Assembly: GCA_944389385.1 (NCBI GenBank)
Contig: CALXMC010000001.1
Coordinates: 189,303-253,302, forward strand
Source of the DNA: an uncultured Alphaproteobacteria bacterium
GTDB lineage: Bacteria > Pseudomonadota > Alphaproteobacteria > Rs-D84
Length of the DNA stretch: 64,000 nt
Reading direction: 5' to 3'
Shown one piece after another: positions 50,497 through 57,451 of this stretch. Position numbers and translations under genes: made by a program. The notes under the pieces are model-generated. The model saw nothing but the letters and a program-made list of their open reading frames with translations, made no database searches and was not told the origin of the DNA. Each line of letters starts with the position of its first letter. The stretch's first letter is position 1.

Positions 50497-52899
50497 ATGG
50501 CGACATTAACACTCGGAAAATCTGTAACAATTGATCAAGTGGCCAGCAAAAAGGGCGACGCTGTGTTTGTTGAACGGCGTCGTCGCGTTGTTGCCCCCGG
50601 CAGTAAAGAACTGCGTGAAGAGCCTGTCGCGCCCGCGCCAACCCATAATGCGGCCGATGAAAAATTGCGCGCTGTATTAGAGGCGGCCCGCGCCCGCGAA
50701 GAAGAACGCCGGCAAAAGGCTGCGGCCGAAGCTGCCGCAACTGCCGCGCGCGAAGCGGAAATTGCCCGCGAAAATCGCGAGTATGAACAGGTAAAAGAAC
50801 AATTGGCTGCGCGTGAAAATGTCGCCAACATACCGCCCGCCGAAGAAATTGACGTAATAAAATCCGTCCAACCGCAGAAAAAACAACATTCCCAGCAATC
50901 GTCGCGTGCGCGTCAAAACCGCGATGACGATGAAGATATGGGTATGTCGCGCGCGTCCAAATTTGGTAACGGTAAAAAAGAATTCAAAAAAACAGGCAAG
51001 ATTTCGTTGCACGACATTGTCATTGGCGGTGATGATGATGACGATGATGAAATCGGGCTGCGTGGTGCAAATCGCCGTCGTTCCGAAGCGTCACTGAAAC
51101 GTTTCCGTGAAAAAGCGCGCGCGGTATTTTCCGCCCCGCAAAAGGTTGAACGTGTTGTGACATTGGGCGATACGATAACCGTCAAAGATTTGGCATCTGC
51201 CATGGCTGAAAAGGTTGGCAATGTTATCAAAAAACTGATGGAAATGGGTATGATGGCATCACAAAATCAAACAATTGACGCCGATACAGCCGAACTGATT
51301 GCGGGCGAATTCGGGGCCAAGGTTAAACGTGTTGATGTAAAGCCTTACTCGGACCAATTGGAACGCCAACCAAATCCAGAAAACATGCAGCCCCGTCCGC
51401 CGGTTGTTACGGTTGTGGGGCATGTCGACCACGGAAAAACGTCATTGTTGGATGCGTTTCGTCATGCGAATGTTGCTGCGCGCGAAGCGGGTGGCATTAC
51501 CCAACATGTTTCTGCATACGAAGTTAAAACAAAATCTGGCGCGATGATTACGTTTTTGGATACACCGGGTCATGAAACATTTACCGCCATGCGTGCGCGT
51601 GGTGCGCAAATGGCGGATATTGTCGTTTTGGTCGTTGCGGCAAACGATTCCATTATGCCCCAGACAATCGAAGCCATTAACCACATTCGTGCCGCCAAAG
51701 TACCGTTTATTGTTGCAATTAACAAAATCGATTTGCCCGATGCCGATCCAACACGCGTCAAAACAGACCTGTTACAGCAAGAGGTCCAAGTCGAAGAACT
51801 GGGGGGTGATGTTCAGTGTGTTGAAATATCCGCCACAAAACATATCGGATTGGATAAACTGGAAGACGCGATTTTATTACAGGCCGGTATCATGGATTTA
51901 CGTGCAGATCCCGATATGCCCGCCGTTGCATACGTGGTCGAGGCGAAAATGGAACGTGGCCTGGGGGCAACGGCAACCATTTTAATGCGCCAAGGTACAT
52001 TAAGCATCGGCGATGTGTTTGTCGTGGGCGAAACGTATGGTCGTGTACGTGGTTTAATAAATTCTGGGGGTGAACGTGTAAAATCTGTCAAACCGGGTCA
52101 GCCTGCGGTTGTGTTGGGACTGAATGCCGTTGCGCGTGCGGGCGACGAATTGCATGTTATGGAAACCGAGGCTCAAACGCGCGAGGTTGCCGCATATCGC
52201 GTCCAGCAGGCCAAAGATCGTGCCAACGCAGTAAAACGTTCTTCGTTACAGGAATTGTTTGCCAAGCGCGACGAAACGAAAAAATTGGTATTGCCGATTG
52301 TTCTGCGCGCCGATGTCCAGGGCAGTGTCGAGGCCATCACAGATATGTTAAAAGACATCCATACGGACAAGGCTTCGGTCGATATTTTATCGTCTGGGGT
52401 TGGACAAATTACCGAAGGCGACATTCGTTTGGCGGCGGCATCGGGCGCAATTATAATCGCGTTTAATGTGCGCGCCGATTCTGTTGTGCGTGATATGGCG
52501 CGCAGTTCTGGTGTTGACATCCGTTATCACAGCGTTGTGTATCGTATCACAGACGAAGTCAAAGAAATCTTGTCCGGAAAATTGGCGCCTGAACGCAAAG
52601 AAAACTTTATCGGATACGCGGATGTTATTGCATTGTTCACTGTTGGCAAAGGCGTCCGTGTTGCGGGTTGCCGTGTGTCCGAGGGCGTAATTAAAAAAGA
52701 CGCCTTTGTGCGTTTGTTGCGCGACAACGTTGTTATTTACGATGGTAAGATTGGCGAACTGCGTCGTGAAAAGAACGAAGTTCGTGAAGTATCAGGTGCC
52801 GGGGTTGAATTCGGTATGTCATTTGATAAATATAATGACCTGAAAGAAGGCGATCGCGTCGAATGTTACGAGGTCGAAGAAATTCGTGCCCAGTTGTAA
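50497..52899 (+). CDS. infB: Translation initiation factor IF-2
   Basis: 800 aa; G-domain [16 protein letters not shown] … DTPGHETF … NKID; follows nusA. Confidence 0.95.
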
Positions 52900-52928
52900 T
52901 AAAAATACCGCCATTTGGCGGTATTTTT
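52900..52928. terminator. Bidirectional terminator (TACCGCCATTTGGCGGTA variant of the family)
   Basis: AAAAATACCGCCATTTGGCGGTATTTTTAT between convergent infB and der. Confidence 0.65.
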
Positions 52929-54267
52929 ATTTATCATCAAATGGATTTTCATCCTTTTTATACTCGACAATAATCGGTAAATGTTCCCATTTCAGTGCAT
53001 TTGCCAAACCACGACGCAGATAACGCGTGTACGATTCAGGAATATCAGACGCACCGCCCACATTTATGGTAATTTTCATCGGATGCCGCCCCGTTTGACG
53101 CGCAAATTTTATTTTCATGGGGCGTTTTAACCGCGACATAGGCGGTTGTCTGTCTGCAACCAGTTTTTCAACAATACGGTTGATTAAACTGGTTGGTGCA
53201 TCAGTATTTGATATATCCCATTGCTCGTATATCCGGCGGAACATATTTTTAACGCCACTGCCCATTTCGGCCGATATTGCCAATATCAGCGGTTTGATTA
53301 TTTGATGAAAAGAATTCGTAAATTGGTGTTTTAATTTTAACAATTTTTCGTCACGTAACTCGGGTGCGACCAAATCCCATTTGTTCAACGCGACGCATAA
53401 AATTTTGCCTGCATCATATACGCGTGCCGCGATTCCCAGTGCTTGGTTTTCGATATTGCGTGTGGCATCCACAACCAAAATAACAACGTCTGATTTTTCA
53501 ATTGCATCCAACGATTTTAACGCAGACAACGTTTCCACATCATCAGTCACGCCCGCTTTGCGCCGCAATCCAGCCGTATCCATTAACACAATATCGCGAC
53601 CATAAAAGTTGGTCGGGATTTTTACCGTGTCGCGTGTAACACCCGGCTTGTCAATAACAATTTGACGTTTTTGCCCCAGTACTTGGTTTACCAGTGTCGA
53701 TTTACCAACGTTTGGTTGACCCATAATTGCGATTTTTAATTTTTGTGTAGTGTTGGTTTTGGCGTCATTCTTTTTTGATTCGTTTGGACTTATTTTATCG
53801 ACAAATTCATATATTGCATCGAAACCGATTTTATGTTCAGCCGAAATCTGGACCGGTGCCCCAAAGCCCAATTTATAAAAATCACTTAAATCAGCCATAC
53901 GGCGGCCAGATTCGGATTTATTTGCAACCAACATAACGGGCGCGCGTGTTTTTCGGCGCACTGCGCGTGCCCAATCCATATCCGCAGGCATCAACCCCAC
54001 GCGTCCATCGACAACAAATAATATTGCATCTGCACCTGCGATGGCATCCATCGCCACATTTGTGGAATCTGCGGCAATCCCAGATTTTGCATTTTCCAAC
54101 CCCGCCGTGTCGACGATTTCCCACATTCGGTCGCGCATATTACCCACAATTGTGTCGCGTGTGACACCTGGGCGATCATGCACCAACGCATCGCGTGTCC
54201 CCGTCAGGGCATTAAACAAAGTCGATTTGCCGGTATTTGGCCGGCCTGCTATTATAAGTTTTTGCAT
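52927..54267 (-). CDS. der: GTPase Der (EngA), tandem GTP-binding domains
   Basis: Two G domains (GRPNTGKSTLFN … GQPNVGKSTLVN) plus KH-like C-terminus. Confidence 0.92.
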   Translation of the reverse strand: MQKLIIAGRPNTGKSTLFNALTGTRDALVHDRPGVTRDTIVGNMRDRMWEIVDTAGLENAKSGIAADSTNVAMDAIAGADAILFVVDGRVGLMPADMDWARAVRRKTRAPVMLVANKSESGRRMADLSDFYKLGFGAPVQISAEHKIGFDAIYEFVDKISPNESKKNDAKTNTTQKLKIAIMGQPNVGKSTLVNQVLGQKRQIVIDKPGVTRDTVKIPTNFYGRDIVLMDTAGLRRKAGVTDDVETLSALKSLDAIEKSDVVILVVDATRNIENQALGIAARVYDAGKILCVALNKWDLVAPELRDEKLLKLKHQFTNSFHQIIKPLILAISAEMGSGVKNMFRRIYEQWDISNTDAPTSLINRIVEKLVADRQPPMSRLKRPMKIKFARQTGRHPMKITINVGGASDIPESYTRYLRRGLANALKWEHLPIIVEYKKDENPFDDK

Positions 54268-54333: not shown

Positions 54334-54930
54334 ATGATGAAAAAAATAAAAAATGGATTAAGAAAACTGCGTGATTTAATAATCAAACCGAAACGGTATT
54401 TTACCCGTATTGTTGCCGACGGCAATATGGAAGAGGCTATGTTAAAAGCCTTTATATACGGTCTGTTGGGTGGATGCTTGGTATTATTACTGCGGTTGAT
54501 TGGCGGGGCAACGATTACGATTGGGTCTGTATTTACAGCGTTAATAATTGTGCCGGTGTTGGCGGTGGCGTTATTGTTTGTGTTGGGCGGCCTGATGATG
54601 TTGGTGTCTGAAATCACGGGCGGGGAACGCGATTGGGAAATCGCCATCAAGGGTCTGGCGTCTGTGTTTTTTGTATATCCAGTTGTACTGGTTTTGAACG
54701 CATTGGCGTTTAATTGCACGTCGATATGGATAATCAGTTTATTGGTTGATGCGTACGTATTGTTCCTGTTTTACAATATTGCGCTGTACTGCATGCGCGG
54801 CAAACGCAGCAATGTTTTGATAGTGATTGCTATATTTGCGTTGTTTTTAATCACGATATACGCGACAGATTACCGTATTGGTTGGTTTATGTTGAAAAAC
54901 ACCAGTGCGACATTATCGTGCATGTTGTAA
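54334..54930 (+). CDS. Yip1-domain polytopic membrane protein (hypothetical)
   Basis: 198 aa, about 5 TM helices; sits between der and the tail-fibre gene on the strand opposite to the surrounding operon. Confidence 0.55.
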   Translation: MMKKIKNGLRKLRDLIIKPKRYFTRIVADGNMEEAMLKAFIYGLLGGCLVLLLRLIGGATITIGSVFTALIIVPVLAVALLFVLGGLMMLVSEITGGERDWEIAIKGLASVFFVYPVVLVLNALAFNCTSIWIISLLVDAYVLFLFYNIALYCMRGKRSNVLIVIAIFALFLITIYATDYRIGWFMLKNTSATLSCML

Positions 54931-54990
54931 TTGTATGCTTGATTTTTATTGCGTTTTGTGATACAATGCGCATACAGAATTAGGGGGGCG

Positions 54991-55052
54991 GGTTCACATG
55001 TTTGTGAACCTGTTTTTTTTTAACAGACGCGGCAATTTGCCGCATTTTTTTT
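54991..55052 (+). terminator. Two tandem intrinsic terminators after the Yip1-like gene
   Basis: GGTTCACATGTTTGTGAACC plus T8, then GCGGCAATTTGCCGC plus T8. Confidence 0.6.
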
Positions 55053-55075
55053 ATAAAAAACAAAAAGGATGATTC

Positions 55076-56059
55076 ATGTATAAAATAACGTACACAGGCG
55101 ACGGTGTTACGCGCGAATACGCGTTTACGTTTTCATATTTTCAATCGTCTGATATAAAGGTTTCAATAAATTCAGATTTATTGGCACCCGGCGGTTACAG
55201 CGTGATAAAAACACCCGACGCGCCGGTTGATGGCAAATACACTGGTGGACACATCATATTAAACACAGCACCCGCAATTGGCGCAACGATTGTTATATGG
55301 CGTAAAGTGGAATTGAATCGTATTGTTGATTATCAACCGACTTTGCCCATCAGTACCACCAGTTTGAATTCAGATTTTAATTTCATATTGGAATATTTGC
55401 GTGACATGTACGACATTGACGAACACGCGGCAAATATTGAAAACGGTATGCAGTTTTTGGATTCTATCCAGGCTCAAATTACACAAATCGGCAATTTAAG
55501 CGAATTGGCGCGCAAATCTGATTTGCCGGATTTAACCCAATATGCAAAAATCAGTGATATTCCAAATTCTGCTGATTTTGCACCAGTGACGCACACGCAT
55601 GATATGTCCAGTTACGTAACAAATTCTACATTTCAAACCGCAATTTCAGAAATATCAGAAGAATTGGAAAATATGCCGTCTGATTTCCCGTTACAGTTTG
55701 ACGAAGACGATGAACCTGATGTGATAGTCAAAACTCAATTACCAACGGCCGAAAATAACTACACTTGGTACCGAAAGTATAAATCAGGTTGGGTCGAGCA
55801 GGGCGGTATAGTTGATCCTGTGACACCAGGTTCTTTTGATTTTGCGTATATCACTTTGCCGATACAGATGCAAGGTACTAAGTTTACGGTGGTTGTATCC
55901 CCTATGATAGGCGCAACAGTGGAAGCATTTGATTCGTATAACACTATTTGTGTATCTATTACGTCTGCAACCGAAATCAAATTAGCCACCCTGGCCCAAA
56001 CTTTGGTTGGAATCTCGTGGTATGTCGCAGGAATGTCGGCATCCCAACAATCAAACTAA
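55076..56059 (+). CDS. Phage T7-type tail fibre protein (Phage_T7_tail N-terminal domain) – isolated phage-derived gene
   Basis: N-terminus MYKITYTGDGVTREYAFTFSYFQSSDIKVSINSDLLAPGGYSV…IVIWRKVELNRIVDYQPTLPISTTSLNSDFNFILEYLRD matches the spacing pattern of the T7 gp17 N-terminal domain (TY..DG…F.F.Y……I.V…..Y……I.l.R.T…..VDf.dGS.L.A.DLN); central coiled region and a distinct C-terminal tip; good SD. Confidence 0.65.
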   Translation: MYKITYTGDGVTREYAFTFSYFQSSDIKVSINSDLLAPGGYSVIKTPDAPVDGKYTGGHIILNTAPAIGATIVIWRKVELNRIVDYQPTLPISTTSLNSDFNFILEYLRDMYDIDEHAANIENGMQFLDSIQAQITQIGNLSELARKSDLPDLTQYAKISDIPNSADFAPVTHTHDMSSYVTNSTFQTAISEISEELENMPSDFPLQFDEDDEPDVIVKTQLPTAENNYTWYRKYKSGWVEQGGIVDPVTPGSFDFAYITLPIQMQGTKFTVVVSPMIGATVEAFDSYNTICVSITSATEIKLATLAQTLVGISWYVAGMSASQQSN

Positions 56060-56796
56060 TCTGAAATAATTGTGCCGTCTGTGGCATCAACGTGTATTTT
56101 TCCGACAGTTATAATTTTATTTTTATATGTTGGTGCCACTTGTTTATCAACTTGGGTGCGCCAATATATTGCCCCATCAGAATTGCGAATCGCATACAAA
56201 TTATTATCGGTTGCAACAACGAATGAAACATTATCAGTTACGATAAAAGGTACAGCAACACCAATATTTACACACCATTTTTTATCCCCAGACGATGTGT
56301 TAATACGACAAAACGCATCGCCCAAACCACCAACATATAACGCGCCATTATGGATTACCAACGGTGCAATAATATCAACAATTGCGGCGCCGCCGGTCAT
56401 ATTACTGCTGCGGAACACATCCGCAATCCAGATTATTTTGCGTGATTTTGGGGCAATTTTTACAACCTCGCCTGTGGTTAAACCTGCATACACATATCCC
56501 TTTGCGCACACAGGCGTCTGGTTGCTTTGCACAGAATTTTTTGTTGGAAATCCGCTGAAAATTTTTCTGTCCCCATCCCAAATTACATTGGCAGAATCCT
56601 GATGATAATGACAATCTGTCACGTCAGGTGTGGATATATTTTCCGGCAAATTTTTAATTTCTGTATTTAATACATTAACTTCATTCATGCTGAACACAGG
56701 TGTACGCACCCCGGGTAAAATCGGGTCGTGATCCGCGCATCCAACCAAAACAAAGGCGGCGATTGTACCAACAAAAAATTTGCACGTTTTTTTCAT
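56056..56796 (-). CDS. PQQ-repeat beta-propeller lipoprotein, BamB(YfgL)-like, apparently C-terminally truncated
   Basis: Lipobox VLVGC; PQQ-like blades (…GYVYAGLTTGEVV…, …HNGALYVGGLGDAF…, …NNLYAIRNSDGAIYW…); only 246 aa versus about 380-400 for BamB; its stop codon overlaps the stop of the convergent tail-fibre gene; sits between the yfgM-like gene and der as in the conserved yfgM-bamB-der cluster. Confidence 0.6.
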   Translation of the reverse strand: MKKTCKFFVGTIAAFVLVGCADHDPILPGVRTPVFSMNEVNVLNTEIKNLPENISTPDVTDCHYHQDSANVIWDGDRKIFSGFPTKNSVQSNQTPVCAKGYVYAGLTTGEVVKIAPKSRKIIWIADVFRSSNMTGGAAIVDIIAPLVIHNGALYVGGLGDAFCRINTSSGDKKWCVNIGVAVPFIVTDNVSFVVATDNNLYAIRNSDGAIYWRTQVDKQVAPTYKNKIITVGKIHVDATDGTIISD

Positions 56797-56800
56797 ATTT

Positions 56801-57451
56801 TTATCTTAATGATTGCGCTGTGGCCGAAATCATATCAGGCGCATCAGCATCGTTAATTATCACATCCAACCATTTGTTCGCATTTTCCCGATTTCCTTCC
56901 GCCAGATACTTTTGTGCGACCATTAACCGCGATGTGTAATAGTACGGCGATTTTTTTGTATTCAACGGACTTAAATAATCTTCGACGGCATCGGCGGTCA
57001 TATCATCACCACGCAATCCAACAATATGCAACCGTGCCAAATCACGAAAATCGCGTGCATGCCCATCGTTGGCCAAATTTTCCAGATGTTCAATATTTCC
57101 ATCCAGTAAATACGCTTGGAACAAAGCCAGGTCAGATGTTGCACCATTTGAATTGGCTGCGACCGCATTCAGCATATTGGTATCAACATTTTGAATTGCC
57201 AATTCATAGTTTTCAGCGATTGCCAATTTATGTGCGCGATATGTGCGTACACCGATAACTGTGGCCGTCGCTATAATCAGCACCATCAGTGCGCCTGCGA
57301 TGATATACCGTGAATATTTTTTGATAAAAGCGGTTGTTTTTTCATTATTAACCTCTTCCCATACTTCACGATACAGGGCGTCTTCGGCGTAATCAGCGCG
57401 AGTTTTCTTTTTGGGTGCGACTTTATTATTTCTTTCCAATATGGATGCCAT
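56801..57451 (-). CDS. YfgM-like membrane-anchored TPR-like protein (UPF0070)
   Basis: 216 aa; N-terminal TM then helical-repeat domain; immediately upstream of the bamB-like gene. Confidence 0.6.
   Translation of the reverse strand: MASILERNNKVAPKKKTRADYAEDALYREVWEEVNNEKTTAFIKKYSRYIIAGALMVLIIATATVIGVRTYRAHKLAIAENYELAIQNVDTNMLNAVAANSNGATSDLALFQAYLLDGNIEHLENLANDGHARDFRDLARLHIVGLRGDDMTADAVEDYLSPLNTKKSPYYYTSRLMVAQKYLAEGNRENANKWLDVIINDADAPDMISATAQSLR

Follow-up and report, generated by a model that had tools for sequence, protein, structure and literature searches.

A lone phage-type tail fibre gene with a conserved promoter-hairpin leader in an uncultured Rs-D84 alphaproteobacterium, and its possible role in a T7-like gene transfer agent

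The fibre locus

The 64-kb stretch of DNA analysed here (the window; all coordinates are positions within it) is part of contig CALXMC010000001.1 from an uncultured gut alphaproteobacterium with a small genome, Candidatus Enterousia, of the order Rs-D84, and contains a 327-aa gene with the features of a phage tail fibre. The gene lies between TM198, which encodes a polytopic membrane protein, and a leftwards-transcribed gene for a BamB-like lipoprotein. A first-pass annotation described it as an isolated T7-type fibre gene, inserted together with a Yip1-like membrane protein gene into a yfgM-bamB-der cluster, and suggested that it is a domesticated accessory of a gene transfer agent (GTA) or tailocin. 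Its placement of the der, membrane protein, fibre, BamB-like and yfgM-like open reading frames (ORFs) is borne out by the ORF map of the window. The fibre gene and its leader have the following features.

54933..54967, + strand: fibre promoter, with -35 TTGATT (54939-54944), a 17-nt T-rich conserved spacer and an extended -10 TGATACAAT (54959-54967)
54990..55021, + strand: leader hairpin 1, GGTTCACA-TGTT-TGTGAACC, followed by a T9 run and resembling an intrinsic terminator (sequence reading and script)
55029..55052, + strand: leader hairpin 2, GCGGCAATTTGCCGC, followed by a T8 run, terminator-like and just 5' of the ribosome-binding site (terminator scan)
55076..56059, + strand: fibre gene, 327 aa, phage-type tail fibre
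55076..55465, + strand: fibre residues 1-130, T7 gp17-type tail-docking N-domain and start of the helical shaft
55466..55717, + strand: fibre residues 131-214, helical/repeat shaft (SDLPDLTQYAKISDIPNSADF..THTHD), helical with low confidence in the model
55718..56059, + strand: fibre residues 215-327, receptor-binding tip, with the conserved motif AENNYTWYRKYKSGWVEQGG preceding a hypervariable distal part

The fibre protein

Comparison with the PHROG database identifies 21 matching families, 11 of which have tail, tail fibre or tail spike annotations, with the best match to phrog_1640 (E=3.6e-13); residues 4-122 also match the Pfam family Phage_T7_tail (PF03906; 21.9 bits, E=1.5e-4), and the tip has no Pfam match. 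An AlphaFold model of the monomer, based on an alignment of 99 sequences, reaches a mean predicted local distance difference test (pLDDT) score of 77, with confident N-terminal (residues ~1-90) and C-terminal (residues ~215-322) domains and a helical middle of low confidence. Foldseek searches of the PDB match the N-domain, at a Foldseek probability of 1.0, to the fibre N-domains seen on podophage portal-tail complexes, namely those of LME-1 (9efk), Carin-1 (8ck1), P-SCSP1u (8i4m), PhiM1 (8vbx) and T7 gp17 (7boz and 7ey9). The C-terminal domain matches the fibre tips of the R1 and R2 pyocins (6ct8, 6cl5, 6cxb, 6cl6) and AP22 gp53 (4mtm), and the same tip forms the C-terminus of 364-708 aa fibre proteins encoded on phage-like IMG/VR contigs. 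Mean pairwise identity across the family is 0.51 in the N-domain, 0.78 in the tip motif AENNYTWYRKYKSGWVEQGG and 0.24 in the distal tip, a pattern that corresponds to the usual layout of a receptor-binding protein. The sequence contains no signal peptide or membrane anchor.

The PHROG and Foldseek results agree with the earlier description of a T7 gp17-type N-terminal domain joined to a distinct C-terminal tip and, judged from its sequence and structural model, the 327-aa protein is a genuine phage-type fibre with a T7 gp17-like N-domain and a distinct receptor-binding tip. The tip probably recognises a surface glycan. Fibre lengths differ within the family: P0022 (357 aa) and P0023 (382 aa) owe their greater length to shafts with expanded 11-residue repeats (ATKDEIPDxSNL), and in P0040 (395 aa) the tip domain is present in three tandem copies.

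A conserved leader with terminator-like hairpins

The fibre promoter was located by a consensus scan and is close to consensus. When the window is searched with a matrix representing the promoters of the fibre family there is a single match, of 37.9 bits, and this is the fibre promoter. The corresponding promoters at the syntenic loci of three related species (L001-L003) are nearly unchanged, and both hairpins are at the same positions but with different sequences; hairpin 1 likewise keeps its position, with varying sequence, in distant loci. This architecture is found upstream of about 45 family members, with protein identities of ~30%, and includes one or two hairpins, the second of which is present in most. 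It also precedes short members of the family (160-220 aa) with an Mtd_N N-terminus in place of the T7 type, and it occurs where the upstream gene is oppositely oriented. The hairpins therefore cannot be explained merely as terminators of the upstream gene. Modules with a hairpin and T-run no more than 35 nt after an extended -10 occur 51 times in 1.13 Mb, and 37 of these are at fibre-family genes. A search of the leader (54931-55075) against Rfam identifies no known RNA element at E<=1.

A T7-like structural cluster in relatives

Related genomes and IMG/VR contigs contain a compact T7-like structural cluster of 12-13 kb, with the genes in this order:

1: small cell-wall hydrolase-like gene (hyd)
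2: T7-type scaffold (PF05396)
3: major head protein (phrog_3437)
4: 75-aa protein
5: tail A (phrog_394) and tail B (phrog_376)
6: 115-aa protein
7: fibre stub of 182-186 aa, optional (for example, L166:13798-14352)
8: N-terminal half of the terminase
9: three genes on the opposite strand, g21 (no family match), g22 (a regulator of the XRE type with a double helix-turn-helix, HTH) and dnaB
10: C-terminal half of the terminase
11: portal (phrog_332), followed by a 92-aa XhlA-like protein

The capsid is present in 173 stretches from IMG/VR and 252 from metagenomes. Gene order is identical in all 34 metagenome loci of at least 12 kb (L166-L242), with birA upstream of the cluster in 32 of them, and ppiD is downstream in the sole locus reaching far enough (L181) and also in L014. 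Across the cluster loci the capsid proteins are 78-89% identical and the BirA proteins 47-71%, and we therefore infer from these values and the fixed order that the cluster is inherited vertically under strong constraint. The cluster, seen in relatives only, occupies one fixed site between birA and ppiD and is maintained there under purifying selection. It includes the dnaB gene and the XRE regulator, and none of the 34 loci has an integrase, a polymerase or a full-length fibre gene inside the 12-13 kb.

The large terminase subunit is split into two ORFs in every Enterousia-type cluster (for example, L014:593-5380 and L181:13757-18539). The N-half corresponds to positions 271-459 of phrog_38 and the C-half to 477-707, and ~3.3 kb of opposite-strand genes lie between the two. 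Developmental excision of the dnaB segment that splits the terminase was considered as an explanation, and at two loci no flanking direct or inverted repeats beyond chance were seen. In more distant viral contigs, with capsids 56-64% identical, the portal gene precedes the scaffold gene, the terminase is in one piece, and a long fibre with an N-domain of the window type is encoded directly after tail B; this is the ancestral phage gene order. At the fibre position, 15 of the Enterousia clusters contain a stub, which is 38-48% identical to the N-domain of the window fibre, and 19 contain nothing. Four loci are informative as to the fibres that accompany the two arrangements, in that the stub occurs with a short Mtd_N-type fibre in three and a full-length T7-N-type fibre occurs with no stub in the fourth, which suggests that the stub acts as an adaptor.

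The intergenic region between birA and hyd contains the sequence cTTGACTTTT..ATTTGTGATAtTAT followed by two hairpin/T-run elements, the same design as the fibre leader. A promoter matrix trained on fibre promoters alone was run on both strands of 34 capsid-centred loci (670 kb) at a threshold of at least 18 bits, and 31 of its 35 matches are at the leader of the first gene of the cluster. We propose from these sequence-level similarities that the fibre gene is co-regulated with the main cluster. The same promoter-plus-hairpin leader is borne by a phage lysozyme gene (L006:8465-9059; PF00959, E=5.7e-28), which is convergent with rmlC within a glycan cluster and is probably a further member of the regulon.

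Distribution and evolution of the fibre gene

The fibre family comprises about 570 proteins, all from Enterousia-like gut Alphaproteobacteria, and the close homologues are all in metagenome-assembled genomes labelled Candidatus Enterousia or gut/rumen Alphaproteobacteria. Genomes of the order Rs-D84 are mostly smaller than 1 Mb and have high coding density (PMC12306168). L001-L003 share the synteny nusA-infB-der-TM198-fibre-bamB-yfgM-rpoH; relative to the window their flanking proteins are 85-96% identical and the fibres 60, 55 and 42% identical, respectively. L002 has a six-gene glycan cluster (6 kb) between the fibre gene and bamB.

Six further contigs of the same species contain an intact 327-aa fibre, giving seven strains with the window, and one of these, L253 from contig ONAT22-1_SAMEA6814433 scaffold_60, is 100% identical to the window in every gene compared. 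Within the species the ratio of nonsynonymous (dN) to synonymous (dS) substitution rates is 0.12-0.19 over the entire gene; the N-domain alone gives 0.07 and the tip 0.4. The dS of the fibre gene resembles that of the flanking genes. Because the gene is intact in all seven strains, with low dN/dS and a dS like that of its flanks, it must have been at this site for a long time and is functional, with most of its diversification in the tip. One relative, L086, has the same der-TM198 synteny with a fibre ORF of 180 aa only (L086:10001-10543); its contig stops 172 nt later, and the short ORF may reflect truncation of the allele or an artefact of assembly.

Association with glycan loci

The first substantial gene beyond the fibre-family gene is convergent with it at 57 of 62 loci, and most relatives have a variable cluster of lipopolysaccharide (LPS) or other glycan genes facing the fibre gene. 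Representatives of the commonest neighbouring families are GT2, GT1/4 and GT11 glycosyltransferases, WavE, NAD-epimerase, DegT, and PIG-L or cytidylyltransferase. Several such fibre-glycan pairs can share one genome. The window, L001 and L003 have no adjacent glycan gene, and there the convergent neighbour is the BamB-like gene.

Where a glycan cluster faces a fibre gene, its far end repeatedly carries a serine recombinase gene (Resolvase, ~200 aa), as at L004, L005, L016 (15369-15980), L022, L029, L041 and L050, and these enzymes may drive phase variation or mobility of the glycan loci. Switching of fibre tips by an invertase or shufflon was also considered, and no inverted cassettes were found around the window fibre.

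Flanking genes

The genes on either side of the fibre element are as follows.

52927..54267, - strand: der (EngA) GTPase (Pfam MMR_HSR1 twice and KH_dom-like), a flanking core gene divergent from TM198
54334..54930, + strand: TM198, a 198-aa polytopic membrane protein, a core gene outside the fibre element
56056..56796, - strand: BamB-like PQQ-propeller lipoprotein, 246 aa, with lipobox LVGC (Pfam PQQ_2 at 64 bits)
56801..57451, - strand: yfgM-like (TPR_21/DUF2659-like) membrane protein, a flanking core gene (weak Pfam matches)

As called in the same-species contigs, der encodes 446 aa. A gene for an rpoH-like sigma factor lies beyond the yfgM-like gene, and GC content is continuous across the region, with no break. 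The stop codons of the fibre gene (TAA, 56057-56059) and the BamB-like gene (TAG, complement of 56056-56058) overlap by 2 nt, and the convergent overlap reported in the first-pass annotation is therefore present. That annotation went on to suggest that the insertion had created the stop and left bamB truncated, a conclusion with which our comparisons disagree. BamB is an eight-bladed propeller of about 380-400 aa. The homologues of the 246-aa protein fall into more than 120 clusters, reaching down to 55% identity, and are 241-246 aa long apart from a few of up to 269 aa; those in L001, L002 and L003 are 242-246 aa, so that the gene is not shortened relative to its orthologues. The protein falls well below the equivalog thresholds for BamB, scoring 49 bits against TIGR03300 (cut-off 285) and 42 bits against PRK11138 (cut-off 423) and covering residues 87-215 only. 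Because of these homologue lengths and low scores, the gene is taken to encode a short BamB-like protein of natural length, typical of this reduced-genome clade. The stop overlap is a species-specific feature, with L001 having a gap of ~10 nt between the two genes, and truncation by insertion is ruled out by this and by the homologue lengths. The BamB-like protein evolves faster than its neighbours (70-75% identical in L001-L003, compared with 85-96%), and its gene has a within-species dN/dS of up to 0.36.

TM198 has 1200 homologues, of which the top 120 are at least 80% identical. Its identification as a Yip1-domain protein (PF04893) finds no support: there is no Pfam match at E<=1 and no NCBIfam match at E<=0.1, and none of 120 listed homologues has a precomputed Pfam domain. 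A single-sequence model, of low confidence (pLDDT 56) and too poor for a fold search, contains an N-terminal helical segment followed by five long hydrophobic helices, a core compatible with Yip1 but not specific to it. The divergent der-TM198 pair is kept where TM198 is followed not by a fibre gene but by ABC/FtsX and lptFG-lptD genes. TM198 is thus a highly conserved core gene paired with der, not one that was co-inserted, and of the 1.8 kb earlier viewed as an insertion the fibre gene alone is variable. The yfgM-like gene adjoins the BamB-like gene in all relatives examined. The order yfgM-bamB-der, assumed in the first-pass annotation to be widely conserved, is not fixed in this clade, because more distant Enterousia-like genomes (L083-L085) have ppa and efp, or a TraG-like gene, after yfgM-bamB and not der. 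The convergent spacer between infB and der (52865-52961) gives sub-threshold Rfam matches to the rimP leader and BSnc120, most likely reflecting a shared terminator hairpin.

Interpretation

We lean towards the explanation that the 327-aa gene encodes a functional receptor-binding fibre made in trans for a domesticated T7-like particle, a candidate podovirus-type GTA. The genome from which the window derives would then also hold a structural cluster; the fibre N-domain would dock on the tail encoded by this cluster, the tip would bind a glycan on the surface of cells of the same kind, and the particles would be GTA-like. The promoter-proximal terminators would hold the fibre gene off until released by an antiterminator, and an antiterminator loaded at the promoter would switch on the fibre gene and the cluster together, in the manner of lambda Q, Bartonella BrrG or Caulobacter GafZ. 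The GTA part of the earlier suggestion is thus supported by the cluster in relatives and by the shared leader; a tailocin is unlikely, given the capsid, portal and terminase genes of the associated cluster.

Several points weigh against this explanation. The structural cluster is read in relatives only and not in the window, where there is no phage structural gene apart from the fibre (tblastn of 21 phage-like cluster proteins against the 64 kb), and the candidate particle system is known here from genes alone. The match of the fibre N-terminus to Phage_T7_tail, although it extends over residues 4-122, does not reach the curated cut-off of 25.2 bits. No cognate antiterminator protein was recognised; g22 is of the XRE HTH type, and g21, considered as a candidate, is a conserved gene without a family or PDB match. 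The split terminase could mean that the packaging machinery is dead, and the link between stub and fibre type rests on four loci only.

Alternatively, the gene could remain from a prophage that has decayed, or be carried by a recombination hot-spot, and owe its retention to chance or to some role other than in particles. The fibre is the sole phage-like gene in 64 kb, its neighbourhood varies between lineages (one relative has the 6-kb glycan cluster beside it), and L086 has only the 180-aa version. A useless gene would, however, be unlikely to persist because these genomes are smaller than 1 Mb and have high coding density (PMC12306168), and the fibre is intact in seven strains with a dN/dS of 0.12-0.19. 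The family has about 570 members, the specific leader is conserved at about 45 of the loci fetched, and the promoter class is common to the fibre gene and the structural cluster, making this first alternative as a whole very unlikely. The prevalence of convergent neighbours (57 of 62 loci), the common presence among them of glycosyltransferase, WavE, epimerase, DegT and PIG-L genes, the occurrence of several fibre-glycan pairs in one genome and the resemblance of the tip to LPS-binding pyocin fibre tips would all suit a different possibility, that of a phage-fibre-derived surface-glycan lectin, adhesin or processing factor of an LPS/glycan locus, mounted on no particle. We regard this as unlikely, given that the protein has no signal peptide or membrane anchor, that the conserved tail-docking N-domain (dN/dS 0.07) is homologous to the stub that takes the place of a fibre in the cluster, that the leader is common to the capsid cluster and lysozyme genes, and that there is no adjacent glycan gene in the window, L001 or L003.

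A third view would accept both the fibre and the cluster as parts of one system but see them as a T7-like prophage that can still infect or be induced, or as a satellite-like element, instead of a domesticated GTA. The double-HTH XRE-type regulator and adjoining DnaB helicase of the cluster are in keeping with this, as is the listing of many of these stretches as viral in IMG/VR. It is set against the constancy of site and gene order in 34 of 34 loci and a divergence that follows that of the host, and the cluster itself has no integrase, polymerase or full-length fibre. Relative to phage-like relatives the terminase is split and the portal displaced, and the fibre and lysozyme genes are scattered elsewhere. 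A live prophage or satellite-like element is an improbable reading, to about the same degree as the first alternative.

A more elaborate version of the GTA proposal, which we offer as a speculation and consider unlikely to hold as a whole, is that the T7-like GTA of Rs-D84/Enterousia has interchangeable fibres that are linked to, and convergent with, the LPS/glycan clusters making their receptors, and that read-through may silence the facing genes. If so, particle specificity and recipient identity would be inherited together, leading to kin-restricted gene exchange, and antiterminated read-through from the fibre gene may silence the facing glycan genes (or, in the window, the BamB-like gene) in producer cells. 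The simpler proposal, if true, would describe a new family of domesticated virus-like particles in abundant, uncultured, small-genome bacteria of the gut and rumen, and extend the short list of known GTAs by one that is T7-like and alphaproteobacterial; its retention would imply a real benefit, because very small genomes are expected to shed non-essential DNA. The antitermination leaders would mark every dispersed part of the system and so provide a sequence signature for the whole regulon. It would also become possible to test whether fibre genes and the glycan loci for their receptors are retained together. None of the papers searched connects Enterousia or Rs-D84 with GTAs, and a podovirus-like element of this type is described there only for Faecalibacterium (PMC12946183).

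Comparison with known systems

The window fibre resembles the T7 gp17-type fibres of podoviruses (PF03906; 7boz, 7ey9, 9efk, 8ck1) in the fold and family of its N-domain, its helical shaft and its C-terminal receptor-binding domain. The N-domain of gp17-type fibres docks on the portal-tail junction, and these fibres attach as trimers where adaptor and nozzle meet. The window gene differs in standing alone among housekeeping genes rather than after tail-tube genes, and its product is short (327 aa), with a sub-threshold Pfam score and a tip of the pyocin/AP22 gp53 type. The fold of this tip is the point of likeness to the R-type pyocin fibres (6ct8, 6cl5, 6cxb) and AP22 gp53 (4mtm; PF21882), and some members of the fibre family match PF21882 in precomputed Pfam assignments, whereas the window tip has no Pfam match; the pyocin and AP22 fibres belong to contractile tails and have different N-termini.

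The genome of the Rhodobacter capsulatus GTA (RcGTA) is spread over several loci (PMC5026251), and GTA fibres or spikes bind capsule polysaccharide (PMC10218006). The Enterousia system is similar in that its receptor-binding proteins are encoded away from the main cluster and are apparently co-regulated with it, and that the likely receptors are glycans. RcGTA is, however, siphovirus-like and its genes are unrelated, whereas the cluster here is T7-like and known from genes alone; the Enterousia fibre genes also adjoin variable glycan loci, and control appears to be exerted by promoter-proximal terminators. FpGTA of Faecalibacterium has been reported as the first podovirus-like GTA-like element, with evidence of packaging (PMC12946183), and shares with the Enterousia element a gut bacterial host and a small podovirus-type structural operon with separate accessory operons. 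It belongs to another phylum, the likeness is drawn from its description, and the Enterousia element is known from its genes alone.

Control of GTAs by antitermination is described for GafYZ in Caulobacter (PMC11150451) and for the Q21-like BrrG in Bartonella (bioRxiv 10.1101/2024.11.20.624540). The Enterousia leaders share with these systems, and with the PR'-tR'-Q arrangement of lambda, a promoter with a conserved element in the spacer between -35 and -10, followed by terminators to be bypassed. They differ in that no antiterminator homologue was found in the Enterousia system, and in that the terminators lie ~20-90 nt from the promoter at every dispersed gene, rather than at the main cluster alone.

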